Assembly (NCBI GenBank): GCA_050084515.1
Contig: CM114271.1
Span: 6,944,001-7,008,000, forward strand
Source: Blasia pusilla
Lineage: Eukaryota
Direction: 5' to 3'
DNA: 64,000 nucleotides
In this document: piece by piece, positions 4,370 to 48,811 of the stretch
Layout of the letters: each line of letters opens with the position of its first letter
Position numbering within the stretch: the stretch's first letter is position 1
The notes under the pieces: generated by a model
Told to the model about the DNA's origin: nothing
What the model saw: the letters and a program-made list of their open reading frames with translations, nothing else
Database searches by the model: none
Program-made: the position numbers and the translations under genes

Positions 4370-4475
4370 TGTCGTGCGAATCCACATCGTCATATAACAT
4401 ACATCGCTGACATACCATACGCACATACATACATAACATAGACGAGAGTATCCACAAACGCAAGTGTACCACAAC
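4370..4475 (-). repeat. E1 repeat A, outer copy (106 bp)
   Basis: Direct repeat of 4847-4952. Confidence 0.93.
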
Positions 4476-4843
4476 TGAAATCCGTGAAAGACCTACTGTC
4501 ATAAAACACGTTTACAATCACATACAATCGAGCCAAACCCACTCCACGATGGGAGAATCTAGGTTGAAGCTTGAGGGAAACACCATAGCCAAGAGCTCTA
4601 CTCACTACCAAGGCTAACTCCCAACGCAACAGGCTCAACTCAAAGAATGATCGTTCTTTGAGGGCAAGCCACCTTATATCCTCCAACCTAAGAGCGGGCC
4701 CTACTGGGAAAGTCACCCCCAAGTGAGTAACCCCCAACCCTATGTATGGAACCGCATCTCTACCAAGCCACTACGGTCCTACATAAGGAATGGCCTCTAC
4801 CAAAGACACCATACTCTACGACATAATCCGTATGGTCATAACA
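4476..4843 (-). repeat. E1 repeat B, 3' copy (~368 bp, TG...CA)
   Basis: Direct repeat of 12719-13085 with roughly ten differences by eye. Confidence 0.95.
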
Positions 4844-4846
4844 AAT

Positions 4847-4952
4847 TGTCGTGCGAATCCACATCGTCATACAACATACATCATCGACATACCATACGCA
4901 CATACATACATAACATAGACGAGAGTATCCACAAACGCAAGTGTACCACAAC
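4847..4952 (-). repeat. E1 repeat A, inner copy adjacent to the PPT
   Basis: Direct repeat of 4370-4475, followed on + by TCGCCCCCCTAA (sense polypurine tract TTAGGGGGGCGA). Confidence 0.93.
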
Positions 4953-5129
4953 TCGCCCCCCTAACTGGCGGTTAGGTCCCTCTAACTCCCAGGTAGCCCT
5001 ATACATCTACTACATGCTATACACCTTCTTGGATGCCCGAATCAGAAGGCCAGGTGCTAGGTTGCCCCATCGTTAGTCGCACATCTATAATCCATATCAT
5101 GCAAAGATCAAGTCATCTACCTCTCCTAA

Positions 5130-8100
5130 GTACATCGAGGACAAACCCACCTTCCAAAGAGGAACAACATCCAAACGTGGAGTCAAACACATCATGTGCC
5201 AACCCCTAGAACACCGATCACACACCAACATACGGTGCGTTACCAGAGACCCACACAACATGCACCTCAAGCTAGCACGTATCATGGCTAAGCTTGGGTC
5301 AACAAGACCATCCACATTTGGAAGATGACATGGCGCACAATTACACACATGGTCCTTCCAAAAACTCCATCACGACCCTCCAACATGAGAACTCCGAAGC
5401 TAACACCTCACGCTTTTCGTAAAATAGTGCGGCTTGCCGCCACATCCAACGTTTTCGGGGCACAATCTGCTGCAAATAGACATAGTCCCCACATGGAACC
5501 TACTGAATCGATGGTCGATAACCTCCACTCGAATGGTTGCATACCGCAACGTATCCATGTGTTGAGCAATGGCAAGATTCTCAAAGGTCGTTGGCATAAC
5601 TCCGAAAGAGCTCGCTGCTGAGAACACATCCTCATCCACATCTCTCGGGTCATCAAGGTCCACCACCTCACTAGACTCCCGACGCAATTTTTTTTGGCAA
5701 GTCCGGATCTCGGCCGTATAATGTAAAATAAGGTGAGAAGGAAGCCAAGGATGCTTGGCGATCGAACCTATACCCCATGGCTAACCATGGCAACTGAATA
5801 TCCTAGTCTCCAAGATGCCCTTCAGAGGCCATACTTGCGCAATGCCCTCTTCACCGCCTCGAACCACACGCTCAGCCAAACCATCCGCCTCGGATGATCT
5901 CGAGACGTGGTCCGATGATCAATCAACGCCTTGTCACACAAGACCTGAAACTCACCTGAAACTCAGACTGGTCGGTCAAGACTTCAGTTTGGTGCACCAA
6001 AATGACTAAGCACTCTATCCGAAACGCATACGCCGTTCCTCACTTGCCTTGTCCGTAATGCCACCAACTCAATCCACTTGAGAAGTGCTCCACCATCACC
6101 AACACATATCGATGATGTCGTACAGTCAATGGTAAAGGTCCCGCAAAGTCCACACTCCAACGGTAACCCAACCCCATAATAGGCAAGGGGTGTAATTGTG
6201 GTGTAGGGGCATTAAATGATGCCTCACCCGGTCACAAACCATACAACGTGACACCAATCTGCTGCACTGAGTATGCATGCCACGCCACCAATATCGCCAA
6301 GGAGTAAGCTATACGACGCTTTACCCCAAAATGTCCCAACTCCTCATGGGCATGTCGCACAATGCGCTCTCTCTGAGCCAAATGTGGCACTACTCGTACT
6401 CTACCATCCTCCCACATACGGAGAATATGTGTTCCCTCCAATCGATACCTCTTAGCACGTTGAAGAACATGGTCTCGCTCCTTGGCACTAACTATGCCTG
6501 GCACCCTACTTTGGTCCGTAGGAACTCCAATACCAACGCATCTTCATGAATATCACGCTGATCCGTACCACCATCTCCAACCTTAGGATCCAAGGTGGCC
6601 ATCTACCCCTCGACTAGAGTAAGATATCATGTGGTCCTCCATACTAGAGTCCACCTAACCAACATAAAAGGCGGATGCATGCCAACCTGGCACCATCTCC
6701 TCATCAACCTCGCCATGCCATCTAGCCCCGTTGTATCCTCTTGGCTAGTACATGGGTTCCTACTCAACCCATCAAAGATCAAGGTTGGCAACTCAGGTCT
6801 ATGTACCATCCGAAGTCATACTCTGTAAGATAAGAGCCCACCGTGCAAGCTTCCCTGTAAGCTTGTCCGACTCCATCAACCACTTGAGCGGTGGTGATCG
6901 AGTAACAAGGGTAAATTGTGTGCCAAACAAGTAACACCTAAAGTGTGTGCCCACCCACACTCTTGCCAAGCACTCTCCCTCATATGAACTATAGCGCGAC
7001 TCATTTGCATTATTCGAACGACTTGCATAGGCCACCACAAACTCCATGTGTTCATCATCATGTTGTGTCAACACCGCTCCAAGTCCCAACCTACTCCAAA
7101 TGTGTAACTCAAATGGGCGCCCTCGATAGGTCCTCAAGATAGGCGCCGCCACCAACCGGGCCTTAAGCTCCCCAAAAGCTCTCTCCCGATCATCTCCCGG
7201 TGCCACTCTTGATCTGATTTCAGCAATTGGTTCAAAGGCTTTGCCATAGCACTAAATCCCTTCACATACCTCCGATAGTAGTTCGCCAATCCCATGAATG
7301 CTCGAACTCTACTCACATCTACCGGACGCGGAATAAGTGCAATAGCCTCCACCTTTGCTTGTGAACTCCCAAACCACCTGGATAGATCACATGACCCAAG
7401 TACTCAACATCCTCATGGAAGAACTTACACTTTCCTGGATGCAAACGAGACCATGAGCTTTCAACCGCTCAAACACCATCTGCAAATGTATCGATGCTCC
7501 TCCACCGTGTTATGAACACCAAGATATCATCAATGTAACACCGAACAAAATCCAACCTCGCTAGGATCCCGCCCATCACTCTTTGAAACTCGGCGGTGCA
7601 TTCTTCAACCCAAAGGGTAAGAATTTCCACCGGTACAAACAATCCTTGCCATGAGAGTTGACACCCCAAAATGTTGTCTTAGCCTTGTCACTCTCCCGAA
7701 TCGGCAATTGATGGTATCTCGCCCAAGATCCAAAGTACTGAAAATATTTGCCTGTCCCACCACATCAAAGATCTCTCTCGGTGTAGGCATGGCATACCTA
7801 TCGGCCTTGGTTTGCCGATTGATAGGGACGGTCATCTCCACACATCCGCCTATCCGTGTAGTTGCCATGCATATCCTTTTAGCAGCATGACATGTGGCCG
7901 ATGCATACTCTCCATGCGACAACTCCACTAATCCACCTTCCAAAAGGTCCAACGTCCTACTCAATCAGGTCCCTCTCCATATCACTATATCGGTAGGGAC
8001 GACGGAAGATTGGCGTATCACTAGCCAAATCAATCCGTATACCGGGTCCAACCAGAGAACCCAACTCCTTCATGCTAAAGGCAAAATAACTCCTATAAGC

Positions 8101-8180
8101 ACGTAGGAACTGTGTCAAGCGTCGTTTCTCACCTCCCGTAAGCTTGGGCCCAAGTAATGGCTCCCAAGTCTCCTCCACGG
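5130..8180 (-). pseudogene. E1 pol: RT, RNase H, integrase, C-terminal PHD finger (frameshifted)
   Basis: ORFs 7605-7964 (ADRYAMPT..EIFD), 7469-7669 (CYIDDIL), 7134-7352 (VRAFMGLANYYRRYVKGFS), 6799-7206 (RNase H), 6232-6504 (integrase HHCC start), 5097-5348 (CMLC...LVCDRCSRGWHMMC). Confidence 0.92.
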
Positions 8181-8449
8181 CATACTAGGGGAGAGGGCGA
8201 TGCCATTGGCTGCTACGCAACCCCCTCACTAGATGATACACCCTTAGCTACACCATCATCTGAGCAAATAACTCCTCCACCAGCATGAGCAACCAACTCC
8301 ACATGCCCAACCATTATATCCCATTTACTCCAAGGATGCAAAATACTACTCTCCTTGCCCCCAGCCGATGCCTCTACCGTCCCGGTAGCCATCGAGCTCA
8401 TTACAAGGGGTGGAAGACCCACAGACATAGTCCGAAGTCGATGCTGCTC

Positions 8450-9420
8450 GGCCATACCAAGACTCAAAATCCAAGTCAAACAATTCAGGTCTATGGCCTG
8501 ACCCAACACATGACGTCATGAAGCCTCAGAAATAGAAGCAACCGCTGTCACGCCAGTAGTAAATCCCATCGCACGCTCTCTCTCATCAACGTTAGGCTCC
8601 ACCAATTGTCGCACATGAGAATCCCATACAAGCCCGGACCACCTTCCCTGTAGGCATGTGACGCGGGAAAACTCACAAATGTGGGTAGTGCCATCCTAGG
8701 CTGGCCCACACGGTTCACCACTGCCATGGGTGACCGATCAATAACCCTCACCACTTGAGAAAGTCGCCAAAGATCCAAGATACTATCCACCGTAAGGCGA
8801 GGATCCTCTTTGACTTTGCATCATATGCTCGACGTAGAACCTCCTAGGCAACAAGTTTGTCCACCACAAGCGTGGGACGATGTGCACTATAAGCCAACTC
8901 ATTTGCATCCAACAACACACGCTGGTCCAATCCAAGACCGCACCTCATGAACACTCGCCATCATCCGGTCCGAGTGTCACCTAACAATGGAACATTCTCA
9001 GAATGTAAGCTAGAGCACGTGCTCGATGAACTCAAGATGTCGTAACACCCGTAACATCTCCCAAAACAATCGAGACCTAGGGTCATGTAATCCCTCACCA
9101 CGACCAAAGACGTGTATGACTCGACATGGCCATCCAAAGCAATCACCAAATCCATAGGACCAACCCTCTCAAGGTCCTGCGCCCCAACAATGCAATGTGT
9201 GATGGTAAAGCACGCTGGTACCCACGAATAGCCGATGGCGGCAACAACTCGGGATATCTCGCATCAATCGACCAATATGTCGAGATGAGACTCTCGGGCC
9301 GTCTCATCTCGCTCCACATACACGTATCTCCCCGACAGAATACCGCCTGCAACATTGCCGCCAAACCAAGTGCTAATCCCACCAAAGAGATCTAACACAC
9401 AAATGCCCCCCGGATCTTGC
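8450..9420 (-). pseudogene. DNMT3-like cytosine-5 DNA methyltransferase domain in E1 pol (frameshifted)
   Basis: Motif I VLDLFGGIS (~9371-9400), II YVYVERD, IV DLVIA/GWPC (9124-9155), VI ENVP (8988-8999), VIII AHRP (~8875), IX ERERAMGF (~8560-8585), X LGQAIDL (~8485-8506), in canonical order. Confidence 0.88.
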
Positions 9421-12400
9421 CATACAATGGGTGTAGTATCCAAAGGGGATAACCAATGGGCGTAGTAGGAGTCCGCCGTGGGGCCTCCTCTTCCTCGTGA
9501 GGTAAATGACCTCACACCAAGCCTCTGCACTAGGCGTCGCCTCTGCCGTAGTGCACCGCTTTGAACTCCAAAGTGGCACATCCAACGATGAGGATGCCAC
9601 TGCTGCAAAAATAGGGACCTCCTCTACCTCCTCATGCAGGAGAATCCATAGCAAAACATTACCCTCAAAAAGTCTCATGGCCAAGTGACTACTCCACTAA
9701 AACCACCCACGGATGCTAACACTTTGTTGGGGAAGACCCTCTGGTCGAGCCCCGAAATAAATCTCACAGAACTTGGCTCATACGTCCATCCCCGGATCGC
9801 CAACCTGGTCTATAAGACTGTCTCGGTCGAGTAATCCATCGAAAACCCATCGGTACAACATCGCTCCTCCAACTAGTACATCATACGACTCGGTGATGTG
9901 ACTACCGCAGATACTCCCAACCGGGAGCTATATCGCATGATCTGGTCTCAATCAGATAGAAAACTTCTCCCGTGTCATGAATTGAGACCTATCATTGGCT
10001 CCTCCAAGTGATGTTTGAATCTGGAATGGGCAAGGCTCAAGCTCTCCCATCCTCTTGGGGACAAAACTTCCTAACATGATCACCTCCACATGTTCAACAT
10101 GATCGCCCTTCTTGCGGGGCAGCAAATGAAGGCAATGGTCTCTGCACAAATGTCCCTCTAGGACTTGATCGAGGTCGCGTGTACCCCCACGACTCCCACT
10201 ACTACTACCACCACCACTACTACGAGATCGTGAGGTGGGCGGTGAACACGAGAAGTAGTAGTTGTATCCCTCTGCACGCGGATGTCACCACTCTCTCCTT
10301 CACCATGTTAAGCTCAATCTTCTCAGATAGAGCAAACACATGGGTCAATGTGGATGAATCATCACTCATAAGAGTAGCATCACGCACCCTACGGCGCAAA
10401 TCTCGCTCCAAGATCCCATACAAAATCGATCGCTCTGATCTCCTCGGTCACACCCTGCGGGTAATCGAAATCAGCGTCGCATACGCATGTATGCCTCACG
10501 AAGACTCTCACCATTCTTTCGCTCAAAGTCCTGAAGATTCCTCAACTTCTCCGTCTTCACTCCTTGATAGTTCTTCTTCAACCTCTTGAAGAACTGCAAT
10601 CAAGGCTAAACGATGGTGGGGCACTAGTACCTCCACTAGTACCCCCACTAGTACCTCCACGGTACCCCCACTCCGGCTCGCTCGTACCACTCAACGTCGG
10701 GTGGTTGGCATAGTAGGAGCACTACTACCAATACCACCATGGGTGATAGACACATAGCCTGGAGACCAATATTGTCTCCATGCCTCAATCTCAAACAACA
10801 TGGTCCTTCCTAAACTCATGGTAATCATCCATGGGTGGTCCTTCCAAGTCTTTGAAACAACCCTTCCAAGCCAAGAAGGGTGTAAACAACGTATGTTCGC
10901 AACATCTCGCATATCACACCACGTATCAAACTCCTGCATGAAGTCCTCTAACTCAATGGTACCCATTGCACGCGAGTATCGTCGTGGGGCCATCATGGGC
11001 CCATATCCACAAATCCATGTCCCAAATCAATGGAGTGCAACACTCGATAACAACGTAGAAGACTCGGTGTTTGGAACACCCTCGTCCTCCTCTTCATCAA
11101 CCGTCGGAAGTGGAAAAGGTAGCCGATACCTAAATCCACTCCGTGTGAAACCACCACTGTCCGCACCACGGTCCCCAACCAGACCACCCGACAACTCTAT
11201 GATGACCAACGCCGATGCCGCACCACTACCAAATTACCCAAGTGACGTCGATGTCGCTCTATTAGTGTAGCTCTACTAGCTATGGGTGTAGGCAACCTAA
11301 CCTCTCATCACCACAAGAAGACTCCCACGGTCTACTGGTCATCACTCCAGCCTCACTATCAGTAGCACACAGGAGTAACACTACTATGGAAATCAGCGTC
11401 AACCCTAACAATGGGCGCGCAAGCAAGAAGCACAATGGAGGGGATCCAAACACAGGAAATCCAACGACAACCCTCCAATCGCAAATGGAAATCAAGGTAA
11501 CCACATCCACCAAACGTGGTGCCCTCTCGAATCCACAAAACCCACCACACAATTCTAACGCATAATAGCTACTCCGCCGCTGGTCGATGACGTGCTAGTC
11601 GAACTCATGACACCTAAAAATATCACTGCATGGAGAGGCTACACCGTATTATGCGCTAGAGGTACATCAACCAAAAACCTGAGATGCATAAAGTGCCTAA
11701 CACCTCTCCGAACAAAGACCAAATGAGCTACAATCATCAGACACCTGGCATAGTTAAGAACTCAGCATTAAGCGTCCTCCAGGCAGAATAGCCCAAAGAT
11801 GGGTGACCAGTTATGCAAAACTCAAATCCTAATTCCTGCAAAAATTGCCTCACGCCCAAGCAAGCAAGCTTGCTTGCTTGCTCCTTGCTCCTTGCTCCTT
11901 GCTCCTTACTCCGCCTCTCTCGCCCCGAGCTACCACGAGTTGCCTCGAAGCCTCGAAGCCTCGAAACGCCGAGACATGCCCCTATCGCCCCGTTCGCCAT
12001 GCTTCGCTATGGAGAGAGGTCCAACCAGGGCGCCCCCAATGGGATAGGCGTCTCCAACAATGAACGAGTCACCAACCAACCAGCCCCTCCGATCCGCTGT
12101 CCACCATAGCCAGACCTTGAGCTAGTCCGCAAAATTTCGATCAGAAATTACTTCACAAATAGGTGACCGAAATCAAATCTATTTCAATCAGAATTCAATT
12201 GACCACCATAGCTATCTCCCCACAAAAACTCAGCTACAACCGAGCTCTGTACTCCGAGCTAAAAATCAGACAAACTTGCTGTCCATACACCTCTAGAACC
12301 GCAAATCCGACAGCGCTTCCGCCAAGTTTCATGCACGCAGAAATTCGCAATGCTCCACGCACTCGAGCAGATCGCTTCACATGAGATCACAATACAAGTA

Positions 12401-12718
12401 GCAATAGGAACCTCTCACCCGATCTGGATGAACTTCAACAGAGCTTCCGCACTCCAAGCTCTCCACATCAGAAAACTGTCGAACACGAACCAGAATCTTC
12501 AATGCTTGATAACTTCCAACTCCCTTGACGAAATCCGCGATCTGGTAGCGTTGGAAAGCTCTCAGCAAGGCGCTTCTTTTCCAACCAACCATGCACCTGA
12601 TTCACACCTCCAACATAGGCAACAAGCCGTGAACATCCACGGCTGAGTACACAATCAGCCCTAACCAGATCCTACTGATCTAATCGAAGCTACCATCGAT
12701 CTACTCCAGTTCTTTGAG

Positions 12719-13085
12719 TGAAATCCGTGAAAGACCTACTGTCATAAAACACGTTTACAATCACATAAAATCGAGCCAAACCCACTCCACGATGGGAGAA
12801 TCTAGGTTGAAGCTTGCGGGAAACACCATAGCCAAGAGCTCTACTCACTACCAAGGCTAACTCCCAATAATAACAGGCTCAACTCAAAGAATGATCGTTC
12901 TTTGAGGGCAAGCCACCTTATATCCTCCAACCTAAGAGCGGGCCCTACTGGGAAAGTCACCCCTAAGTGAGTAACCCCAACCCTATGTATGGAACCGCAT
13001 CTCTACCAAGCCACTACGGTCCTACATAAGGAATGGCCTCTACCAGCACACCATACTCTACGACATAATCCGTATGGTCATGACA
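12719..13085 (-). repeat. E1 repeat B, 5' copy; forms the element's 5' terminus and contains a TATA box
   Basis: Repeat of 4476-4843; sense ATATAAG at 12923-12917; TSD follows at 13086. Confidence 0.93.
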
Positions 13086-13249
13086 CACACAACACCGATC
13101 TTCCCCACACACGCGTCGATCCACACATGTAAAAAAATTAACTCATACATATACATGGAGATCACACAACCGCCCCCCTAGCTGGCAATTGGATCCCCCC
13201 AACTCCAGATAGAAAATATCACATCTCTCTAACATGACCTACTACCCTA

Positions 13250-16116
13250 TACACATCTCGGACACATCCATCGTCCCGTGGGAACCACATCAAGAGGGGG
13301 GGTCGGACATGACATATGCCACCCTCGAGAACAACCATCACATACCAACATGGTGGCTGCATCCCTCGCAGATCCGCACAACATACACCTCAAGCTTGCA
13401 GGTACCATTGCCAAGCTCGGATCCACCGTCCCATCTACATTCGGAAGATGACATGGCGCACAATTGCGCACATGATCCATCCAAACCATACCATCCCGTC
13501 CCTCCGACATGAGGACTCCGATCGGTAATACCTCGCGCACACATAGGATCGTGCGCCCTGTAGTGACATCTAGCGTCGTGGATGCCGCTTGCTATAAATA
13601 TACGTAATCTCCAGGATGAAACCTCCTAATTCTTAGACGATAACCTCCTCCACGAATGGTCGCGTACGTCAATGTATCTCTATGTTGAGCAATACCTAAG
13701 TTCTCAAAGGCCATAGGCATAACTCTACGAAAAACCTCCGCCCTCTGAGAACATGCTTGTACCCACACATTTGGATCATCAAGATCTAACACCTCCGCCA
13801 TGTCACGTCGAATCGCTGCAGGTAAATCTGGCTCTCTTCCAAAGAGCAAAAAGTACGGTGAAAATGACGCCAAGGATGCCTGCCGACTAAAGCGATAACC
13901 CATAGCCAACCATGGCAACTGTAGGTCCCACTCCCTCAACTGTCCCTGCTGCAAGCCATGCTTGGGCAATCCTCTCTTCACCGTCTGTTCCACTTTCTCC
14001 GCCAACCCATCCGTCTCAGGATGATCTCTGGATGTGGTGCGGTAATCTATCAGCGCCTGATCACACAAGGCCTGAAACTCTCTCCTGAACTCGGTACCCT
14101 AGTCAGTCAACACCTCCGCCGGTGCACCAAAGTGACTAAGCACACGATCTAGAAACGCATAAGTTGTTCCCTCGCTCGCCTTGTCTGGTAGTGTAACCAA
14201 CTCTATCCACTTTTAGAAATGCTCCACCATGACCAACACGTACCTATGATGACGCCCCGTCAATGGCAAAGGTCCCGCAAAGTCTAAACTTCACCGATAA
14301 CCTAAACCCATAATCGGCAAAGGATGTAACTGCGGAGTGGGAGCATTGAAGGATGCTCGCGCTCTGTCACATACCATACATCTGGCCACCAACTGTTGTA
14401 CCCTAGTATGCATGTCGCGCCACCCTAGTAAGTACGCTTCACTCCAAAATGTCCCAACTCCTCGTGGGCATGTCGCACTACACGTGCTCGCTGAGAAGGA
14501 TGAGGTACCACTTGTATCCTATTATCTCCCCATACCCGCAAAATGTGAGTCCCCTCCCACCTGAACCTCCTGGCTCTCTGTAGGATCCGATCCTGCTCCC
14601 TAGCACTCACTGTACTCGCTATGACGCCAATGCGCAAGAACTCCACAACCTCCACGTCGTCATGGATATCACAACCACCTGTTGCCTCCTCACTAACCTC
14701 CGGATCGAAAGACTCATCATCCAACCCCACCACTAGAGTCATCACCTGTGGCTGACCTGCTATAGTCAACTAACAAAGATAGGCAGATGCATGCCAACCC
14801 GACACCATCTCCTCATCACTCTCTCCGTGCCATCGAGCTCCTGTGTAATCTCTCTGAATCGGACATGGGTTACGACTCAACCCATCCGCATCTTGGTTCA
14901 GCCGACCTGGCCTATGAACCACCTCAAACTCATACTCCTGTAGTAATAGAGCCCACCTGGCAAGCTTTCCCATAAGCTTGTCGGACTCCATCAACCACCT
15001 CAACGATTGATGATTAGTGATAAGTGTGAAAGGGTTGCCGAATAAATAGCACTTGAAATGTGCCACGGCCCACATTGCAGCCAAGCACTCTCCCTCGTAG
15101 GAGTTGTACTTTGCCTCTGCAATGTTGTTCGATCGGCTTGCGTAAGCCACAACGAACTCCCTCTCCTCGTCATCCCTCTGAGTAAGCACTGCTCCTAGAC
15201 CCAACATGCTCAAATCCATATGTAACTGGAATGGGCGACCCCTAACCGGTCTCTATAAAATTGGTGAGGACGTCAACCTGTCCTTGAGCTCCTGAAATGC
15301 TCGCTCATGATCATCTCCCCACAACCAAACCTGATCAAGTCTCTTCAACAAGGTCAAAGACTTTACGATCGCACTAAAACCCTTGACATACCATCCATAG
15401 AAGTTCGCTAGTCCAAGAAATACTCGTACTCGACTCACATCTGTAGGGCGTGGAATCTGCACAATAGCCTCTACCTTCGTCTGCTGAACGCCTAACCCAC
15501 TCGGGTATATGGTGTGTCCCAAGTACTGAATCTGCTCCTCAAAGAATCTGCATTTGCCTGGATGTAACTTCAATCCATGTAACTGCAATCGCCGAAACAC
15601 CTCCTCCAAGTGTCGCTCATGCTCCTCAACCGTGGAACTGAAGATAAGAATATCATCTATGTAACATCGTACAAAATCCAAGCCAGCCAAAATCCTATCC
15701 ATCACTCTCTGAAACTCTACAGGCGCGATCTTCAACCCAAATGGTAGGAACCGCCACTGATACAAGCAATCTCTCCCGAACCGATCTATCCCCCAGAATG
15801 TTGTCTTCTCCTTGTCCTCCAACCTGATAGGAAGCTGATGATAGCCAAAGACGGAGATCTAAATCTTGAAGATCTTTGCATGCCCTACCGCATCAAAGAT
15901 CTCCTCAAGAGTAGGCATGGCATACCGATCTGACTGTCGGTTGATAGGACGGTAATCTCCACACATCCGCCTATCCGTCCAATTGCCATATATATCCTTC
16001 TTCGCCGGCATGACTCTGGCAGATGCATACTCCCCATGTGATAACTCCACAAGTCCTACCTCCAACAAGTCCTGACTCCTGCTCTGAATCAAAGCTCGCT
16101 CCATATCAGAATACAT
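13250..16116 (-). pseudogene. E2 pol remnant: RT, RNase H, integrase, PHD finger
   Basis: ORFs 15859-16116, 15253-15822 (WRFLPFGLK..CYIDDILIFS), 14770-15219 (RNase H; ADGLSR), 14425-14769, 13592-14068 (TTSRDHPETDGLAEKV), 13247-13540 (C4HC3 PHD). Confidence 0.93.
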
Positions 16117-18320
16117 GTAGGCGCACCCCTATGCGCGCGTCCCACCTCGGGGGGGGGGCGTGCGCCGTTCGCGCCCTAACCCTACCCCTAGCCACCCTTT
16201 ACTTGATAGCCCCCCGGCGGCTGTAAGCCCTAACTCTCCTTCTTGCAAAATCCCGACATTCTCGCTATTAGACGACGCTATACCTAGCGTCACAACCTGC
16301 GCTACACCCTGCTGTTGTCCCCCATTAATCCGCACCAGCAAAATTTGAGAAAAACGGATAACGCTTCCGCCCACGGCCTTCCAAACAGAAAAATGACAAA
16401 CACCCGCAATACACGCGTATCCAGGGGCCCCCGACCAAGGCAACTCGATTGCTTACCTGAAAACAACGAATTCCCACCAGCCCCCTGCCATCTTTCTCAC
16501 GTAAAAATAAAGAGTAGTAAAAATGGCACATCCAGAATCAAGGAATCCGGACGCTAGCACCCTAGTCCTATCTCACACACATACAAGGGAGGTGTTGCAA
16601 CGGCCCAACATGAAAAAAATGGCTTAAGAAAGACATCTTCCTCTCTTATATAGGGTTGGGAAGAGCCAAAAGGCTCTTCCCCTAAAAATAGCCCTCCCCT
16701 TGGTAACGTGCGCGCACAGGTATATTTATGATATAATACAAAATATTCATTATTTACTTACCATACATTCATTGCATTTAGGGCTCTGTAAGGAGGACAA
16801 GGGATAGGATCCTCAAAGGTATATCACAAACAACATCCATCTTCTTGCACTACTACATTTGCGACTGATTTACAAGTTACATGAGCCAAAACTCGGTGAT
16901 AGTACAATTGCAATAAAATCACACCGGGCTTACAACTTTACGAGTCTCACACTCGTAATTGACTCGCAAACTTGAGAAGTGGACTTACAAATTATGGTCG
17001 TAATGTAGCTTAAAGGTTCCATTTTCTTATACTTGCAAATCCTACACAGTTTAATCCCAAAATGCTGGTACGATGCTTGTAAGAGAAAGTAACTTTTTCA
17101 CGTCTTTGCAAGCCACTTTTTGGTGATTAAGAGTCTGACTAGTTACAAATAAGTCTTAAATAGCAATTCCAAAAAATAGTTTTTTTTTGCATTTGCAAAA
17201 TAGTGGTTTTGGACAACGGTTTGATTAGTCACAAAATACCTAGTCCAACTTTTTTTCACTCACAAACTGGTTTTTTTGGTCTCACAAGGGCCTCTCAAAG
17301 TTGTGGTTTTCTACAACTGCAAAGTAGTTGTTTTCTACTCCTCTTAAATTTGGTTTTAACTCATTCTTGGGTCGAGAAAATCTGTTTCATCGAGGATTTA
17401 TCTCCTTCCAACTTTTTCTTATGCATGATTTTGCTTTCTTCTCTTTCATTTCTTTGTTATTAAAACCAATTTTTTTGGGAAAAAAACATGTACAATTATG
17501 AGCTTCATTCCACACATATAAGACGCTAATTCATTTGAATACATAAATATAAATCATATGCCTATTTCTTGGATATTTTTTTCTCTAAAATTCATATTTG
17601 TGATTAGAAACTAAGTGATGAGCTATCTGGATAAAAATACTTATGTGGGTCTTAAATTTTTTTCGTGAAACCCTAAGAATTCTCTAGGTCTGAAATCATT
17701 ACTTATTTGAAGGACTATAATTAAAATTTGGAATATCTTAACTATTTAGAAGAAAACATGTATATATTTGGTGGTTTTTGTAAAATTTCTACCACATCTA
17801 TGATTATAAATTTAATTTTAATATTTTTCTTACAATGCTTAATAAATCTAATATACAAGAAAATAGTAAAATAAATTCATCTTGCAACAAATTGATATCG
17901 AATTCAATGGTACTAATCTTGATGAATATTTCTACCTCTTTTTCTCCTCAAATTCATGATAGTTAAAATACATCAAAGCCTTCTTATGTGGACTAGAAGT
18001 AGATGGATTTGTTTTTTTTACGAAACGAAACTCAAAATCCAAAATTTCTTTCGATCATGGAAAAAAGTCCATAACTAAGAACGTTACCAAAGGAACTACA
18101 TCTTTCACTTAGTTGTTAATGTGAGTTCAATTGCAATATTCATAAGAAAACTTCTTTCTTACTAAAGCTCATACCAAATATTTTATGATACTTTCCAACC
18201 AAATTAATCTGAATTTTGAAGCCAATTCATTTAAATCATGTTTCATAATATTTATCAGATTTTATATATATATACATACACATATTAGGATTCCTTTATA
18301 GGTGATGAGGATATGATTAT

Positions 18321-37280: not shown

Positions 37281-40200
37281 TGTCGTGCGCATACACATCG
37301 CTACACAACGTACATCGCTGGTCACATCTACACCACACTACACCGATCTTCCCCACACACGGGTCGATCCACACATGTACAAAATCAACTCATACATATA
37401 TATGGAGATCACACAACAAAAATAAAGAGTAGTAAAAATGGCACACCTGACCTAAAACTCCACTCCTCAATCTACATCGGCATATCGAGCCTCGTCCACC
37501 CTGTGCTATCAAGAAATCCGGGCGCTAGCACCCTAGTCCTATCTCACACACATACAAGAGAGGTGCTCCAACGGCCCAACATGAGAAAGATGGCTTGGGA
37601 AAGCCATCTTCCCCTAAAAATAGCCATCCCCCTGGTAACAGGTTATCAGGGGCGGGTGACCTTGTCAACAAGTCACCGAGTTGTGAAAGACCTCAACATG
37701 AAAGTTGTCAGAAACAACGTTCGTGACACAATGGACCTATCCTCAACCTCATCCGACACCGTGGGAAAAAGTTACACTCAAGATAGTCCGCTGGCTCCTA
37801 CGCCCTATCCACGATAGATCTCGGCCTATCGGCTACTCAAATGTGACAACTGTCGTGCGCATACATATCGCTACACAACATATATCGCTGATCACATCTA
37901 CAACACACAACACCGATCTTCCCCACACACGGGTCGGTCCACTCATATACAAAAATCAACTCATACATATACATGAAGATCATACAACCGCCCCCCTAGC
38001 TGGCAGTTGGATCCCCCCTACTCTAGATAGAAAATATCACATCTCTCTAACATGACCTACTATCCTATACACATCTCAGACACATCCATCATCTCCTGGG
38101 AACTACATCAAGAGGGGGGTCGGACATGACATATGTCACCCTTGAGAACAACCATCACATACCAACATGGTGGCTGCACCCCTCATGGATCCGCGCAACA
38201 TACACCTCAAGCCTGCAGGTACCATTGCCACGCTCGGATCCATTGTCCCTTCTAAGTTCGGAAGATGACATGGCGCAAAATTGCGCACATGATCCTTCCA
38301 AACCATACCATCCCGTCCCTCCAACATGAGGACTCCGGTCGGTAATACCTTGCGCACACCTAGGATCGTGCGTCCTACAGTGACATCTAGTGTCGTGGGT
38401 GCCGCATGCTGTAAATACACGTAATCTCCAAGATGAAACCTCCTAATCCCTAGACGATAACCTCCTCCACGAAGATTCGCGTACCTCAATGTATCTCTAT
38501 GGTGAGCAATAGCTAAATTCTCAAAGGCCTTAGGCATAACTCTAAGGAAAACCTCCGTCCTCTGAGAACATGCTTGTACCCACACATCTGGATCATCAAG
38601 ATCTAACACCTCCGCCATGTCACGTCGAATAGTTGCAAGTTAATCTGGCTCTCTCCCAAAGAGCAAAAAGTATGGTGAAAATGACGCCAAGGATGCCTAT
38701 CGACTAAAGCAATAACCCATAGCAACTGTAGGTCCCACTCCCTCAACTGTCCTCGTTGCAAACCATACTTGTGCAATCCTCTCTTCACCGTCTGTCCTAC
38801 TCTCTCCGCCAACCCATCCGCCTGAGGATGATCTCTGGACGTGGTGCGGTGATCTATCAATGCCTGATCACACAAGGCCTAAAACTCTCCATTGAACTCG
38901 GTACCCTGGTCAGTCAACACCTCTGCCGGTGCACCAAAGTGACTAAGCACACGATCTAGAAACGTATAATTTTTCCTGGCTCGCCTTGTCCGGTAGTGCT
39001 ACCAACTCTATCCACTTGGAGAAATGCTCCACCATGACCAACACGTACATGTGATGACGCCCCATCAATGGAAAAGCTCCTGCAAAGTCTAAACTCCACC
39101 GATAACCTAAATCCATAATCGGCAAAGGATGTAACTTTGGATTGGGAGCATTGAAGGATGCTCGCACTTTGTCACATACCATACATCTCGCCACAAATTG
39201 TTGTACCCCTGTATGCATGCCGCGCCATAAATGCTGAATATGTAGTAAGCTGTAAGTACGCTTCACTCCAAAATGTCCCAACTCCTCATGGGCATGTCGC
39301 ACTACACGTGTTCGTTGGGAAGGATGAGTTACCACTCGTATCCTACCATCTCTCCATACCCACAAAATGTGAGTCCCCTCCCACCTAAACCTCCTGGCTC
39401 GTTGTAGGATCCGCTCCCGCTCCCTACCACTCACTGTGCTCGCTATGACGCCAGTGCGCAAGAACTCCACAACCTCCACGTCGTCAAGGATATCACGACC
39501 ACCTGTCTCCTCCTCACTGACCTCCGGATCCAAAGACTCATCATCCAACCCCACCACTGGAGTCATCACCTGTGGTTGACCTACCATAGTCAACCAACAA
39601 AGATAGGCAAATGCATGCCAACCGGGCACCATCTCCTCATCACTCTCTCCGTGCCATCGAGCTTCTATATCGTCTCTCTGACTCGAACATGGGTTACGAC
39701 TCAACCCATCCGCATCCTGGTTTAGTCGGCCTAGCCTATGAACCACCTCAAACTCATACTCCTATAGTAATAGAGCCCACTTGGCAAGCTTTCCCGTAAG
39801 CTTGTCGGACTCCATCAATCACCTCAACGGCTGATGATCTGGTGTACCGATCCGACCTTGTCTGTTGGTTGATAGGACGGTAATCTCTACACATTCGCCT
39901 ATCTGTCCAATTTCCATACATATCCTTCTTCGTCGGCATGACTGCGGCAGATGCATACTCCCCATGTGATAACTCCACAAGTCCTGCCTCCAACAAGTCC
40001 TGACTCCTACTATGAATCAAGGCTCGCTCCATATCACAATACCCGTAGGGTCGACAAAAGATTGGCGTATCACTAGCCAACTCAATGTGTATCCCTGGAC
40101 CCTTCACCGTACCCAAGTCTCTCATATTGAAGGCAAAACAACTAACATGCCTTCTCATAAACCTATGAACTCGCCGTCGCTCTCCTCCTGTCAACTTGGG

Positions 40201-42640
40201 ACCTATAACAGGCTCCCAAGTCTCCATCGTGACCTCACTGGGAGAGGACGCAACCTCCGGCTTTGGTTGCTATATAGCAACCCTAGCCACCTCCGCAACA
40301 TCCACTCCACTCTGACCTCCTACACCATGCTCCACATCCAAAAAATGAACATGTGATACTCTTGCTGCTTTCGCACTCTCTGCTCGAACGACGTCCCAGG
40401 AAGTCCATGGGTGCCTACCTCTCCTCATCCCGCCCCCAACCAATGCCTATACAGATCTTGTAGGAAATGGTCCAACTCGTGGATGTGACGGCATGGATGA
40501 CACTTGCATCCATCTCTATTCAGCCATACCTAAGCTGACTATCCATGTGAGACAGTTGAGGTCCATCGCCTGCCCCAACACCTATCTCCGGGATGCCTCA
40601 ACCATCCCTGACACCGCCGTAGTACCCGTAGCGAACCCCATGGCACCCTCACGCTCATCGGTTGTAGGCTCCTCTAATGCTCGGGTCATCTCATCCCAAA
40701 TCATGCGTGGCCCTCCCTGACGAAAGGCATGGGATGCTCGGAAGCTCACCAACGTTGGTTGTGGTGCCCTCAACTTCCCCACCCTATTGGCCATCACCAA
40801 CGGTGGTCTATCATCCTGCGTCATCACCTGAGATTGACGCCATGAGCCTAGAATAGCATCCACTATGAGATGTGGTGCTCTCTGGACTCCATCGTATGCT
40901 CGACTCAGTACCTCGGATCGATGGTATCAGGTTCATCCACCACAGTCGTGGACGATGGGCATGTGATCCAACTCTCGCTGCATCTAGCAACACAACATGT
41001 CCCAACCAAGACCTCACCTGATGCACACTCGTTATCACATGTGCACGAGTGTCTCCCAACAACGGCACGATCTCCAAAATGTATCCTAGAGAACATGTCT
41101 GACTCTCCTGCAAGTGTCGTACTACTCACAACATCTCCCAAAACATCCATGACCTCGGATCCTGCAATCCAAATCCTCGGCCAGCTGATGAACGACCCTA
41201 ACATGGCCATCCAGCAATCACCAAATGAATGGTGCCAACTCTATCCAGATCCTGCGCCCCCACCAAAGAGATGTCGGAGGGTAGTGTATGATGATATCCC
41301 CGTACTGCAGATACCGGCAACAACTCAAAATACCGCTGGACCAATCTCGCCACGTGACGTAATGAAAGTTGCCGCGCGGTCTCATCTCTCTCCACATAAA
41401 GGTACTGATGCACCTGTATGCCCGCCTGCAATAGTGTAGCCAATCCGTTGCTAATCCCTCCGAAGAGATCTAATACCCTAACACCCTCCTCTGGACACTG
41501 CCACACAACGAGTGTGGTATCCAATGGGGTCAACGTCTCCACTTTAGGAGCCCGATTGCCACCTGACTCTCGCTGGTCTGGGATAAAGGCATGACTCCAC
41601 GCCTGCCTCACGAGGTCGTCGACACTCATTTGTAGCTCTCAAGTTGTACCCCACAATGGTGAAGAGGTCTCGCCAACATGTGAAGAGACACCCGCCATGG
41701 CCTATCTCTTTGTGGGACTATCCGCTACTGGGACATACTCCGCCTGTGCGTTCCCCTCCAACAACTCTCCTGGCTAGCTCACACTACCTGTGAAAGCTGC
41801 CAACGTGATCACAGACTCGCCTCGTGATTGACCACCTCGTCCCGTAAATTGCACAGGTAACTGACTCATCCACCCATCACGTGACCGCCACCCTGGCCAA
41901 TAAGCAACGGTCTCCTCCCATAAGTCAAGGATGAATCCTATGGGATATAAAACTGTACTCCCCACCAACACATCGTACGACTTAATTGGTGTCGTAATCG
42001 CACGTGTGTGCACCATAGCACTATCCATCGCATGCTCTAGGTTGACTCTGATAACTATCTCCTGTCGAGTCATATACTGCGTGGGTGACACGCCTCCAAT
42101 TGAGGTCTATATCTGTAAGGGAGAAGGCTCAATGTCGGCCTTTCGTAACCCAAACGCTAAACACGCCGCCTTCCCTAACATCAAGGGTTGCGCTCCCGAA
42201 TCAAGTAGGACGTGCTACGGGTGGTATACTATCCCCGTGGGACTAACCAGGCGAAATACTCCAACTCGGTTATCTAGTAACACTACTCCAAGTGTCACCA
42301 CTGCTCGCTCTATGGCCGGTCGAGCTGGCATATCTACCAACTTTGCCGCCGCCGCATGCCATGACTCTGTGGGGAACGTTCCGAGCACCAGCTCTAAGGG
42401 CAGGTCCACCACCTCCTCAACTATCTCTAAACAAGAAGCAGTCACCTCTCCACGCTCACACAACATGGCGTCCAGCCGCAACACCTCAACTGGTCCAACT
42501 CCCAACGTAGCCAACTCTATGGCGGAAAATAGTGGAGTCTGACTCTCTCCGGTGGCCACCTCCAACACTATGGTCGACATTGACTCCACTCGAGTCGGCG
42601 TAGGAGTTGTCACTCCAACTCCTCGTGTAGTGCCTCCCAC
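37281..42640 (-). mobile_element. Ty3/gypsy E3 (subfamily 2), 5'-truncated: A-B-A, PPT, PHD, integrase, partial RT, DNMT, protease
   Basis: A 37281-37417, B 37418-37848, A 37851-37988, PPT complement 37989-37998; integrase ORF 38943-39746 (HAHEELGH..CMVC..WSLDFAG); RT core and RNase H deleted at ~39835; protease VLLDSGAQPLMLG ~42175-42215. Confidence 0.92.
40530..41500 (-). pseudogene. DNMT3-like cytosine-5 DNA methyltransferase domain in E3 pol
   Basis: VRVLDLFGGISNGLATLLQAGIQVHQYLYVERD (I, II); IHLVIAGWPC*G (IV); YILEIVP (VI, Asn to Ile); LDAARVGSHAHRPRLWWMNL (VIII); EREGAMGFATGTT (IX); VLGQAMDL (X). Confidence 0.92.
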
Positions 42641-44331
42641 AATATGAATATGAAGAGTTCATGCCTATTGTGACCAAACATGATTAATTACTGTGTAAAA
42701 TCGCAAGATGATCTTGAAGTAGATGGTCTAGCCGTAAGAGGTGTCCATGCGGTGTAAAGGGATTTACAAACTTATGGCTTGCAAAGAGGCCACCTAGGAG
42801 AATGGGATATACATTCACTGAGGCTAGCAATGAGTTATAGATTTAGCTTGAAAGTGTCCTTGGCATCCTTTTGAACCTTTTTTTTCTCTCTACAAACAAG
42901 ATCTAAATTTTCCTATGTCTATTTTTGTAATGTTAGAGGTGTTGAACCAAGACGACTCAATTTTAAGGATGAGAGCATAAGCTCAATAGGCAGAGATATT
43001 CCTCCGTCTGTTCCATTGGAATTTGAGAACTTGGCTACCATCCAATATCAAGATGCGTTGAGGTATGTAAGTATTTAAGGAGGAGGATATTGATGAACAA
43101 TTTGAATATTTTATTGGGGAGACTCTTTTCAACTTGCAATACATGGCTCCAAAGACACAGCATGTTAAGACAGGGTCCTCCACATGCATTTTGAGGGTGC
43201 GCAAGGTGTTGCCACCACGTGTTCTCTTGCTAGAGGGACATGATGGTATGGTTTGAAAGGATCATATGCATAATTTCACCTTGTAACCTTCCAAACATTG
43301 ATGGGATAGTGGACTCAAGCATGTCAATGGTACCTACAAGCTTACATTGCATGATAGGTAGATTGGTCAAATGTGCTACTACTGCTAGTCTTTAATTGGT
43401 GTTTGAGAGGAAGACATATGTCAGGTTTGGCTCCATCCATCTCTTGCTAGGATTTCTTAAGGACAATGAACGTATCATAAATATCCTTAAAATAGTTATT
43501 TATGGATCTACAATTCCAAGAGGGAAATTGATGAAAATGAGATGATTAACAACGGGGCCACACTAGAAAAAATCATTTTGTGCTTAGCATTTGAGACATG
43601 TATGTCATTGTACACAAGAATATATAGAGGATTATAGGGAGTTGGAGAGACTTGACCACCAATTGTGGGTATTGTGGATTTTTTTGGGGGGAGGGGGTGG
43701 GGGATCTAAGACCTTTTGGCACATGATTACATGTATGTTTGATTTTCAACTTATGAGTTAAGTGGCTGATGGATTTAATATATAATGCGTAGCGATGTGT
43801 ATGCACATGACTAAAGTAATGTCATTTATGTTGGAGTAGAGAGTATTTACAAATCATATCGAGAGAGGGTGGATAACACCACTTGTAAGTTAAGGATGAT
43901 CTAGTGAGGAAGGCGAGGGGAGGAATGTGTATGTGCAAATTACCTCTAGTTTAGGACCTATTTGGGATCTCTATATTCAATTTACTGGCCATCCAACTTT
44001 GTTATGATTATTTAGAAGTCTAGAGTTCAAACATCATAAAACATTTGTATTTTCTCATGGCCACTTATATGTAGCATTATCCAGAGTAGTATAAAGAAGT
44101 AAGTTCCACATTATAATTGTTACGCATTCAATGAAATAAAACTATTCATCTTCTCTTTTCACATATACATATGCTTGCATGTCAATATCAGGGCATGTAA
44201 GACATTGGCGGAAAGAAGGCCGATCAATGTCTAAAGCTCATATCCCGATCCTCTTTTAATTATATAGATTATACCACTTCTTGATATCGACTTTCGTACC
44301 CTAGATGTCAACGGACTATGACATCTATTTG

Positions 44332-45889: not shown

Positions 45890-48811
45890 CTATTACTCTT
45901 CCCACAATGGGTTTTAGTCCTCCCTCCAAGGGGTGGTGCAACGGGTCATCGTGAAACCTCCACACGTATTCAACGCTTTATGTATGGGGATTGGGAGAAT
46001 CTTCAGAATGAGCATGTACTCCGAGCAGAGGCCTTAGTTACGGCTCATCCCACTCAACATGCCAATCATGGAAGGCCTTCAATACAACAACGCCTTCGAC
46101 AAAGTCTACTTTTGGGGCAGGTTGGTGAGTTTTCAGGTGCAGCTCGAGCATTGGGTCCTCTTTCTCCGGTATCCAAGCGCGGAAACAGTGGCTCTCTTAG
46201 AAGCTCTTCATCCTCCTTCAAGTGGCGATGCTCCACCTTTTGTGGAAGACTATACAACGGACCTTTACTTGGAGCTTGACTTGGAGGTTTTCACAAGGGC
46301 TTTTCTGCATATTCCTTGCTTATCAGCAAGCAGGCTATCATGGATGGTTTTTGAGCATCTCCGCGATTGCTTTATCCCAGCAGATTCAACAAGTGGCTTT
46401 GTCTCTCTATATAAGGTGTGTGCACATATGGCCGTAGGTTGTCTCCCATTCTCTATCTCTAGGCTCTTAGGGGCTTGTCGTTTGTTGGCTATGGATAAGC
46501 CTCCTTCAGGTGTGCGCCCTCTGGCTATTGGAGAGATTTTATACCGCTTGGTTAGTCGATCCCGATGCTTGCAATTTCGTCCTCACTTTAGTGTCCACTT
46601 ATTTCCTCATCAATTTGGAGTGGCAACTTCTGGAGGTTGTGAGGCGGTGGTGCATGGGATTTGCTCCACTCTTGATATTCATCCAGATTGGGTAGCAATT
46701 CAAGTCGATGTGGCTAACGCATTCAATTCAGTTTCTTGTGCGGCCATCTTTGAGGAGTTACGTTGTGCAGGAGGACAACTTGCGAGCCTCATTCCATTTT
46801 TTGGTCCTTCTATGCCTATGATACGCCCATTATATATTCCCATCATGCTACTTCTAGGGAATATAGTATTCTACAATCGGCTTGTGGCACACGTCAAGGT
46901 GATCCCATGGGTGGCCCACTCTTTGCCATTGCCTTTTTTCGTGCCCTCCGAGCATCAACGCAAGCATTTCCATCTTGTCTTTTCCCTATAATGTGATGAC
47001 ACTCATATTATAGGTCCTGCTTCTGAAGTGGTTCTGCTTATACCCATTTCGTGGAGCAACTCTCTTTCTTAAACCTTGAAGTCCAACCTGTAAATGTGGA
47101 GTATGGTCTCCTTCATGCCTTCCCTCAACATTCACCCCACTTACTCATGATTTTCCCATCTACATTGGAGGGGTTAGAGTTCTTGGGGTCCCAATTGGCT
47201 TCATTGACTATGTCTCAAAGTTCTTGGATGAGGCCCTTTTGAAAGACGTGGAATGGCTTCATTTGTTACCTTATCTAGGGGATCCTCAAGTGGCTTATGG
47301 GATTCTCTCCCCATGTTTTCTACGACGTCATTCCTACCTTCTTCGCACTTGCCCTCCCACTTCAAGGTTCTTACATCGGTTGGCCTCTTTTGATACTTCT
47401 ATCTTGGCAACTTTTGGTCAACTTCTTAGCCCGAATACCTTTGAGGGAGAGGACGGTGTCTTTCCTTCACGACAAGCTATCTTGCCTATTTCTTTTGGAG
47501 GGGTGGGACTGTCCTCCATACTCGTATGTGCTCCCGCAGCCTTTTTGGGGAGTTGGGCGTTGGTAGCACGGATTATGGCTTCAAGGTTTCTCCAAGGAAA
47601 TACACCTATCTTGATGGATCATATCGCCCATGTAGAGGAGGGGGACTTGTTATTTCAACAACAACTGAGATCTGCATGAGCTCTTCTTCCTCTTGCTACA
47701 CAAGCAATTCTAACCCCTTTCATTCAACTAATTACGGAAGGGCTTGATCGACTTCAAGAGCATATCTACGAGAATCTGCATCAAATCAACTTTTCCAGCA
47801 TTCTCTTTGAGGCATCCTCTGACGCTAATCGAGCTCATCTACGTTCATGTGCGGGCACCGGAGCGGGGGCGTGGCTTACTGAAAATCCTCTTATTCTTCC
47901 ATTTCGTCTTCCTCGAAGTATATTCTCGACAACTTTGCGGTTACGTCTTGGACTTCCCCATCCTTCTCTCTCAGGTGTGCCGAATTGTGTATGCAGGGAT
48001 CCCATTTATGCCAAGGGTATCCATATTCTCCGATGTACACGTGGTGGAGAACAAACGGCCACACATGATGTCATTAGAGAGGCGGTAGCATCGATGGCTC
48101 GTACTGCAAGATACACCGTTGGCCAAGAGCAACTCCATGTCCTACCTTCAACCACACAAGCAACCTCTCGTCGGAGAGTGGATCTTGTTATATCTCGAGG
48201 TGGATTCTGGACACTAGGTGATGTGGTGGTTGCTGATCCAACACGTTCTGACTTGGTGTGTCGAGCCGTACATGCCAAAGGTTTGGCGGCCGAAGATGCA
48301 GCAAGAATCAAGGAGTTAAGTTATGTTGTGAGACATGCGACTGATGGATTTATTCCTTTTGAAGTGGAAGTATTCGGTCATTTACATGTGTCTTTTGATA
48401 CTTTCCTGAAAATATGTGCTCACCACTCCCTCGAGAATCATCACCTTGCCCCTTCCCGTAGTCCATCTCTCTCGGTAGTTACTACTTATTTTCGGCAATG
48501 CATCTCAGTGGCCTTACAACGTGCACAAGCCTTGGCATTGATACGTCGTGCAGAGGTGGTGGGGGGTCGCTAGCCTCGTCGTCCATTCACGTTTGACCAA
48601 CCACTCGTGTTCTTGTAAGATTTGTTTCAGGCTATCAACCGTGTAGCTCGTTGAGCCGATGTTTGCGTAGGTTTGCTGCCATTTTCTTTTTGCAATCTTT
48701 TATGCATTTTTTGACTCGTCTTTTGAGTTGTTATTACCTTTCTTTCTCCTCTTTTGAGGTTTATTTTATAATAAAATGGATATATTTTATGGGGTCATCC
48801 TCTTTTAATTA
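45890..48811 (+). mobile_element. CRE-like non-LTR retrotransposon (RT, CCHC, restriction-like endonuclease), 5'-truncated and frameshifted
   Basis: GVRPLAIGEILYRLVSR, QFGV, QVDVANAFNSV, GTRQGDPMGGPLF, CDDTHILG, CVCRDPIYAKGIHILRC, THDVIRE, RRVDL..DVVVADP, FIPFEVEVFG, ISVALQRAQA; followed by (TAGA)3. Confidence 0.9.

Follow-up and report, generated by a model that had tools for sequence, protein, structure and literature searches.

Retrotransposons that carry their own C5 cytosine methyltransferase have been described in the dinoflagellate Symbiodinium and in the charophyte alga Klebsormidium (de Mendoza et al. 2018, PMC5890265; here and below, as given in the available part of that paper). 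The Symbiodinium elements, SymbioDIRS-Dnmt3 and SymbioLINE-Dnmt, belong to the tyrosine recombinase or LINE (long interspersed nuclear element) class and, according to the authors, acquired their enzymes independently; the DIRS enzymes methylated CG sites de novo in yeast. In KnitGypsy-Dnmt3 of Klebsormidium nitens, a non-rearranged DNMT3-like domain lies in the polyprotein open reading frame (ORF) of a long terminal repeat (LTR) gypsy element, which has few copies, repeats arranged as in DIRS (Fig. 4 legend) and a signature of purifying selection (ratio of nonsynonymous to synonymous substitutions, Ka/Ks, <0.2). Later papers mention, in the parts available, only “streptophytes (Gypsy-DNMT3)” (PMC12344493; bioRxiv 10.64898/2026.05.21.726589). 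Here, we describe a domain of this kind in a stretch of 64,000 nucleotides from Blasia pusilla (GCA_050084515.1, contig CM114271.1, positions 6,944,001–7,008,000 of the forward strand; hereafter the window). On its minus strand, positions 40519–41638 encode a C5 cytosine methyltransferase (MT) domain between the protease (PR) and the reverse transcriptase (RT) of a Ty3/gypsy element, which we call E3.

Together with a second copy in the window, E1, the E3 family fits the description of KnitGypsy-Dnmt3, having a DNMT3-like domain in a gypsy polyprotein ORF and a DIRS-like repeat layout; this is a likeness by description, drawn from the available part of the paper, which gives no domain order, leaky stop or PHD tail for that element, and no Klebsormidium protein was named among the relatives returned by our protein searches. 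The charophyte element has few copies; the closest relatives of the present family are liverwort and moss sequences, and its copies must, to judge from read depth, be very numerous. Unlike the Symbiodinium elements, it belongs to the gypsy class and to another host kingdom. In the literature searched, outside which subscription journals, Repbase and supplements lay, we came across no report of gypsy elements with a DNMT from bryophytes or other land plants. The kind of element is already known from KnitGypsy-Dnmt3, and land-plant membership, copy number, a putatively leaky stop codon and a second domain layout are the additions made here. The original prediction, made from the letters of the window alone, had correctly named the dinoflagellate and Klebsormidium cases; it had regarded such domains as not standard in land-plant LTR lineages, and the family is also present in land plants, in liverwort and moss gene models.

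The polyprotein of one retroelement can be read on the minus strand from 42658 to 39757 once stops are written as X. Frame -1 leads from the protease into the MT and, after one frameshift, frame -2 continues with the remainder of the MT, followed by a linker and the first part of the RT. In the MT translated in this way (frame -1, 40814–41638, plus frame -2, 40519–40926), the six motifs I, IV, VI, VIII, IX and X stand in canonical order (Table 1), and Pfam PF00145 gives a match of 26 bits (cut-off 22, E 7.9e-6); relatives of the domain score 30–46 bits. This match needed read-through of the stops, because the separate ORF pieces between them (nine scanned with Pfam) gave no MT, PR or RT match. 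The E3 region is thereby confirmed to encode a genuine C5 cytosine methyltransferase domain, as had been predicted from the order of the motifs with a PF00145 search named as the check. The predicted place in gypsy pol, between protease and RT, stands as to position and reading frame: the protease region, in which Pfam itself found no match, and the RT start (ETWEPVIG, 40201–40224) are both collinear with Marchantia polyproteins in tblastn comparisons. The assignment to pol proper does not stand, because the MT lies upstream of a conserved stop and hence on the Gag-PR side of the putative recoding signal described below.

Compared with the PDB by phmmer, the E3 MT finds DNMT3A chains at the top (best E 9.3e-7), followed by DNMT3B/C, DRM (0.006–0.04) and HhaI (0.04). 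A family profile of 34 aligned members (alignment A1) matches DNMT3A with 1.1e-28, DNMT3B with 6e-27 and DNMT3C with 7e-27, and DRM (2.7e-15 to 2.5e-12), HhaI (2e-9) and DNMT2 (1e-8) less well; no DNMT1 chain is among the 57 matches listed at E up to 0.01. The AlphaFold model of a Calypogeia relative, P0005, has a predicted local distance difference test (pLDDT) score >90 across most of residues 300–640, and all 31 of the matches listed in a Foldseek search of this model against the PDB are DNMT3A/B/C, with TMt values of 0.77–0.84 and ~23% identity for isolated catalytic-domain chains; an Atlas structure search agrees (DNMT3). Altogether, the MT is shown to be DNMT3-like in sequence and, for the intact relative P0005, in predicted fold. 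The resemblance to DNMT3 wording claimed in the original prediction is borne out as well: the DNMT3A wording quoted there is visible in the PDB alignments, which DNMT3A tops. A bacterial-type methylase gained by transfer was considered and rejected, the profile preferring DNMT3A/B/C.

With the catalytic domains of host DNMT3A/B/C, its best sequence and fold match, the MT shares the motif order I-IV-VI-VIII-IX-X and a short target-recognition region; it differs in its low identity, in the wording of motif X (LGQAMD in E3) and in being embedded in a retroelement polyprotein. Furthermore, Pfam finds Gag, RT, RNase H (RNH), integrase (INT), PHD and MT in five long polyproteins of the family and nothing else, that is, no PWWP, ADD or plant-type DUF companion domains. 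Because PWWP and ADD are absent, we regard the MT as a DNMT3-like catalytic domain and not as a DNMT3 orthologue. Plant DRM2, the de novo methyltransferase of plants, is likewise DNMT3-derived, yet its motifs are rearranged, and the match of the family profile to DRM is at least 13 orders of magnitude worse than to DNMT3A.

A second window copy, open-frame relatives in liverworts and mosses, and a read depth equal to that of the protease show that the MT is a standing part of the family and not a one-off insertion. E1 is a complete, although decayed, relative that also contains the domain (Table 1). Among longer homologues, 24 of 24 are polyprotein-sized (16 from Marchantia polymorpha, 2 from Calypogeia fissa, 2 from Sphagnum and 4 unnamed; 40–66% identity). 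Open frames with the plan Gag-PR-MT(-RT-RNH-INT) occur in gene models of Marchantia, Calypogeia and Sphagnum; the Marchantia protein P0006 runs from Gag with its CCHC knuckle through PR to MT in a single open frame, and P0013, also from Marchantia, has the order PR-MT-RT-RNH-INT. An exhaustive protein search returned 1474 proteins at E up to 1e-3, of which 418 reached E up to 1e-10. Scanning of metagenomes gave 371 candidate MT stretches, and 257 of these were confirmed. In a quick maximum-likelihood tree of 85 domains, all transposon-borne, the E3 MT falls in a fully supported clade of 15, whose other members are ten Marchantia rows, Calypogeia, Sphagnum and two unnamed rows. In DNA run X14, of which ~1% was read and reads at least 85% alike were counted, depth is ~1000 over the MT, ~1015 over the protease and ~1300 over RT-INT. 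Because these depths match, the MT is as common as its neighbouring domains, and the family is very numerous in the organism of run X14.

Between MT and RT, E3 has an in-frame TAG, and a homologous TAG is found at the aligned place in E1. We walked upstream, in frame, from the conserved RT start in 27 close metagenome loci and in E3. In 25 of the 27 loci, and also in E3, a stop is met after 14–22 codons, and the bases that come next are CAA and two pyrimidines; L023 and L029 have the same stop, with the next codon also mutated to a stop. With E1 included, the junctions read TAG in 23 and TAA in 6 cases, and in none of the 29 is there a sense codon. In L002, L011, L026 and L061, the MT ORF and the RT ORF adjoin in the same frame with a single stop between them. 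The Marchantia proteins P0006 and P0009 end at the corresponding place, ~75 residues past motif X, and fourteen ORFs of 1228–1451 residues contain Gag-PR-MT only, on contigs of 6.6–10 kb that are long enough for pol. To judge from this conservation of sequence, the TAG at 40270–40272 did not arise by decay; it is a conserved stop in a context of the read-through kind.

The type I read-through motif of tobamoviruses is UAG CAR YYA (Firth and Brierley 2012, PMC3542737, in the part available). The junctions of the E3 family resemble it in that the stop is followed by CAA or CAG and two pyrimidines and has a replicative enzyme downstream in the same frame; they differ in that the stop is situated in a retrotransposon, after protease and MT, and not in a replicase, and in that the hexamer of most copies ends in C. 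The full CAR YYA context is found in E3, E1, L011, L061/L063 and L026. We consider it probable, from the context of these stops, that the stop after the MT is read through at a low rate, giving mostly Gag-PR-MT and, as a minority, the full polyprotein. The MT thus probably belongs to the Gag-PR-MT product and, if the stop is leaky, would be made in Gag-like amounts.

Several observations weigh against such a leaky stop. Most junctions read CAA CCC and thus differ from CAR YYA at the last base; many of them are near-copies of each other (L061/L063, L021/L022, L014/L015), so that independent support comes from about five lineages; and a more distant clade has the MT fused to the RT, with no stop within 120 codons in 17 of 31 loci. 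RNA coverage is also uneven. Among the reads at least 85% alike in three RNA runs, all from one study, the first mate lies mostly on the plus strand, which in usual stranded libraries corresponds to sense RNA of the minus-strand element, and depth is ~15–55 over 38181–40340 and ~1–11 over MT and protease (40341–42660). The RNA over MT and PR is thus about six times thinner than over RT-INT, compared with a 1.3-fold difference in DNA, which a full-length sense transcript does not predict. A 3' bias, truncated copies or an internal start are possible causes. This RNA comes from copies other than E3, because only 1–14 reads per run are at least 99% alike.

The stop might alternatively be a true terminator, with RT-RNH-INT made from another RNA or by reinitiation, or a defect inherited from a few master copies. 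The prevalence of CAA CCC and the rise of RNA depth 3' of the stop favour this explanation, as does the fact that no decay change is commoner than TAG to TAA. Yet the same codon recurs in about five diverged lineages whose linker peptides can scarcely be aligned, the RT frame is always continuous with that of the MT, not one of the 29 copies has a sense codon, and E3, E1, L011, L061 and L026 agree with CAR YYA in full; we therefore regard it as rather doubtful and prefer the leaky stop. As a separate observation, six loci of the distant clade (L034, L049, L051, L052, L055 and L075) have in common a TAG that precedes the RT start by 29 codons and has TTGGAT, TTAGAT or CTGGAT directly after it; this stop could be a defect passed on by descent or a further recoding site.

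The proposal that in intact elements the MT would act as an active de novo DNA cytosine methyltransferase on the element’s own complementary DNA (cDNA) or new insertion appears evenly balanced to us; its purpose might be camouflage as host-like methylated DNA, or self-limitation. The original prediction had supposed such methylation as well, and also that the enzyme is released from the polyprotein, which it may be. Over the 34 aligned members, F/G of motif I, C-Q of motif IV, E-N of motif VI and R.R of motif VIII are nearly invariant. The ratio of nonsynonymous to synonymous substitutions (dN/dS, Nei-Gojobori) of the MT ORF is 0.23–0.24 between two subfamilies, near the value given for KnitGypsy-Dnmt3; this value is rough, dS being saturated at ~1.5, and within one subfamily dN/dS is 0.77, both of which count against the proposal, as does the only published yeast test of the Klebsormidium gypsy enzyme, which was inconclusive (PMC5890265).

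A retained MT could, on the other hand, be no DNA methyltransferase in practice, and serve instead as a DNMT3L-like scaffold, as an RNA methyltransferase or as a DNA-binding module that steers integration. In agreement with this, the MT probably belongs to the product of the Gag side, to which nucleic-acid chaperone functions also belong, and GWECQ in place of the canonical PCQ and ENT in place of ENV occur in 28 of 85 domains each, by rough pattern counts with some rows unresolved. The yeast assay of the Klebsormidium domain, which gave no methylation and was inconclusive, points the same way (PMC5890265). Against it stand the (nearly) invariant Cys-Gln, Glu-Asn (motif VI), arginines (VIII) and glycines (I) across the 34 members, and the high-confidence prediction of a complete DNMT3 catalytic fold, its short target-recognition part among it. 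DNMT3L-type scaffolds are not known to have these invariant residues. We thus consider a role other than DNA methylation unlikely.

The neighbouring element E2a has no MT. Its homology to E3 breaks inside the RT at 16121 and resumes at 18660 with 76% identity, and the 2.5 kb gap in between (16121–18660) is filled with terminal-repeat fragments. We therefore rejected E2 as an MT-less family member: the gap cuts the RT N-terminus, contains terminal-repeat pieces and is a rearrangement or the result of two abutting fragments, not an MT-less design. That the MT is a fragment of a host DNMT3 gene, which bryophytes do have (PMC6453930, in the part available), or a separate insertion that happens to sit in E3, as the original prediction had allowed for, is highly improbable despite the MT-free E2a/E2b, given that the domain is collinear and in frame with PR and RT, stays in frame in intact relatives, recurs in E1 and in the confirmed metagenome stretches, equals the protease in read depth and has none of the host companion domains in the polyproteins scanned; a host DNMT3 pseudogene was rejected on the same collinearity with Marchantia polyproteins.

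The E3 copy itself is dead. On its 5' side, homology stops near 42627–42660 and gag is absent. The MT is interrupted by TAG at 41198–41200, TGA at 41126–41128 and TAG at 40582–40584, where relatives have Q, R and Q, respectively; the first of these stops follows GWPC and EIV replaces ENV, two sites that relatives keep intact. The inactivity, the EIV change and both TAG stops, together with their apparent origin from CAG, had all been noted in the original prediction, which had missed the TGA and a frameshift of 4 bases. The frameshift is private to E3 or to a minority of copies, because 490 of 791 genomic reads lack the 4 letters at 40916. A deletion of ~917 bp in the RT, measured against 15014–15931, is private to E3, because 1077 genomic reads continue at 39839 with the letters that follow 15015 of E2a. 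All 11 in-frame stops of the E3 polyprotein are TAG or TGA (5 TAG and 2 TGA in frame -1, 4 TAG in frame -2). We also considered a second conserved stop between PR and MT and rejected it: stops there are decay, because they occupy different codons in L002, L009, L011 and E3 and the Marchantia P0006 is open.

Comparison of E3 with E2a (37903–39838 vs 13085–15014, 90% identical) yields 123 transitions and 50 transversions. C/T differences affect 48 of 133 CHG sites (36%), 27 of 180 CG sites (15%) and 48 of 667 CHH sites (7%), which amounts to an enrichment relative to CHH of ~5-fold for CHG and ~2-fold for CG. Furthermore, compared with the majority of reads, C or G is replaced by T or A in the window at 225 places, and T or A by C or G at 103. 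E3 has decayed mainly by C-to-T changes that are enriched at CHG and CG, the pattern to be expected if methylated cytosines of host-methylated DNA are deaminated.

The order PR-RT-RNH-INT with a DDE integrase, by which Ty3/gypsy elements are recognised, is present in the family, and E2a has a PHD finger after the integrase (13250–13591; PF00628, 5.6e-11). The coding plan of the family is very probably Gag, protease, DNMT3-like MT, a putatively leaky stop, RT, RNase H, integrase and PHD finger, with split direct repeats outside. The repeats of E1 are arranged as A1...B1-A2-B2 and not as a plain LTR pair, with 96.7% identity between the A and 96.3% between the B copies; E1 ends in TG...CA and is flanked by a 4-bp duplication, CACA. 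The 3' layout of E3 is alike (B1 and B2 90.6% identical across 138 nt), and the same arrangement occurs in five metagenome elements of two clades (L031; L032, L040, L070 and L075). The B1/A2 joint of E1 resembles an end-to-start joint with 2–3 spare bases, and a run of G precedes B1. E1 lies within the terminal repeat of E2a (4365–4369 / 13086–13090), with CACA on both sides; this site is uninterrupted in E3 (37903–37907). Ngaro/PAT-type DIRS-like elements have split direct repeats in the order A1, internal region, B1, A2, B2. E1-type elements share this arrangement, yet unlike Ngaro/PAT-type elements they have a DDE integrase, TG...CA ends and a 4-bp target duplication, and no tyrosine recombinase.

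Table 1. Features of E3 and of related elements, in window positions.
Feature	Position	Strand	Remark
Element E3	37281..42660	-	5'-truncated decayed copy, PR-MT-stop-RT (deleted)-RNH end-INT-terminal repeats; collinear with Marchantia P0006/P0013
Aspartic protease region	41777..42217	-	LLDSGAQ (DSG) at 42188-42208; aligned with Marchantia PR region
MT domain, N-terminal part	40922..41638	-	frame -1; motifs I, IV, VI, VIII
MT motif I	41453-41476	-	VLDLFGGI
MT motif IV	41201-41212	-	GWPC
MT motif VI	41063-41080	-	ILEIVP (EIV for ENV)
MT motif VIII	40928-40963	-	HAHRPRLWWMNL
Frameshift in MT	40916..40922	-	frame -1 to -2, 4 bases; from tblastn frames
MT domain, C-terminal part	40519..40926	-	frame -2; motifs IX, X
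MT motif IX	40633-40659	-	DEREGAMGF
MT motif X	40555-40581	-	VLGQAMDLN
In-frame TAG between MT and RT	40270..40272	-	followed by CAA CCA; candidate read-through stop
RT, N-terminal part	39757..40269	-	same frame as MT C-terminal part; then ~917 bp of RT missing
RNase H end, integrase zinc and core domains	38946..39761	-	Pfam Integrase_H2C2 8e-13, rve 2e-4
E3 3' terminal repeats	37281..37988	-	B2 37281-37417, A2 37418-37850, B1 37851-37988
Element E1	4370..13085	-	complete but decayed relative, ~68-73% nucleotide identity to E3
MT domain of E1	8435..9609	-	three frames, at least 9 stops, ENV kept
Homologous TAG of E1	8213..8215	-	TAG CAG CCA, at the aligned place between MT and RT
E1 split repeats		-	A1 12719-13085, B1 4847-4953, A2 4476-4843, B2 4370-4476
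Element E2a	13086..16121	-	RT-RNH-INT-PHD, ~90% identical to E3 (3' half)

Beyond the window, we used BLAST to compare domain probes with 182 proteins that match the MT, including 4 read-throughs of the window itself. About 40 have the MT between PR and RT; in ~50 it is placed after RNase H and before integrase, as a rule together with a PHD tail; and 92 show the MT alone; the two layouts fall in two clades of the 85-domain tree with modest support (81). The second layout, RT-RNH-MT-INT-PHD, is represented by P0040, P0063, P0072, P0095 and ~46 others as well as by loci L067, L072 and L073, and is very common in metagenome contigs. Its named hosts are chlorophyte green algae (Scenedesmus, Haematococcus, Monoraphidium, Chromochloris and Chlamydomonas eustigma), and the PR-MT-RT layout is also found in Closterium.

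As to the remainder of the window, a 264-codon open frame at 51281–52075 (plus strand) encodes a 3-oxo-5-alpha-steroid 4-dehydrogenase domain (PF02544, 9.5e-25) and probably represents one exon of an enoyl reductase-type gene of the host; no other host gene was evident. At 31524–32891 (plus strand), ORFs that resemble Gag and show a CCHC knuckle, together with the protease motif DTGA, belong to another LTR element; inverted or direct repeats at 27764–34029 flank this plus-strand element, and no MT match was found there. Long ORFs on both strands at 23469–26492 and 46038–48573 look by eye like remnants of non-LTR (LINE-type) reverse transcriptases, and a Gag fragment at the window end (63076–63810, minus strand) has 39% identity to a Marchantia polyprotein across 182 residues.

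Public records call some such transposon ORFs of Marchantia and Sphagnum “DNA (cytosine-5-)-methyltransferase”, names that can inflate DNMT gene counts in bryophyte genomes. Cytosine methylation is the host’s main weapon against transposons, and a transposon that carries a de novo enzyme is therefore a standing puzzle, for which the plant-lineage case in print, in the part available, comes from an alga in which the element has few copies and its enzyme gave an inconclusive result when tested for activity (PMC5890265). Taking the above together, we tentatively envisage one old gypsy lineage that extends from green algae to bryophytes, with a PHD-tailed integrase, split repeats and an active DNMT3-type enzyme; in its land-plant branch, this enzyme may be made at Gag-like levels by way of a leaky stop of the tobacco mosaic virus (TMV) type and may methylate the new DNA of the element itself. 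The lineage would still be transcribed and numerous, including in Marchantia, and has perhaps exchanged DNMT3 catalytic domains with its hosts. A leaky stop with the enzyme on the Gag side leads to a concrete prediction of dosage, and the open-frame relatives in Marchantia, which is transformable and in which knock-outs are possible, would make the idea of self-methylation directly testable.

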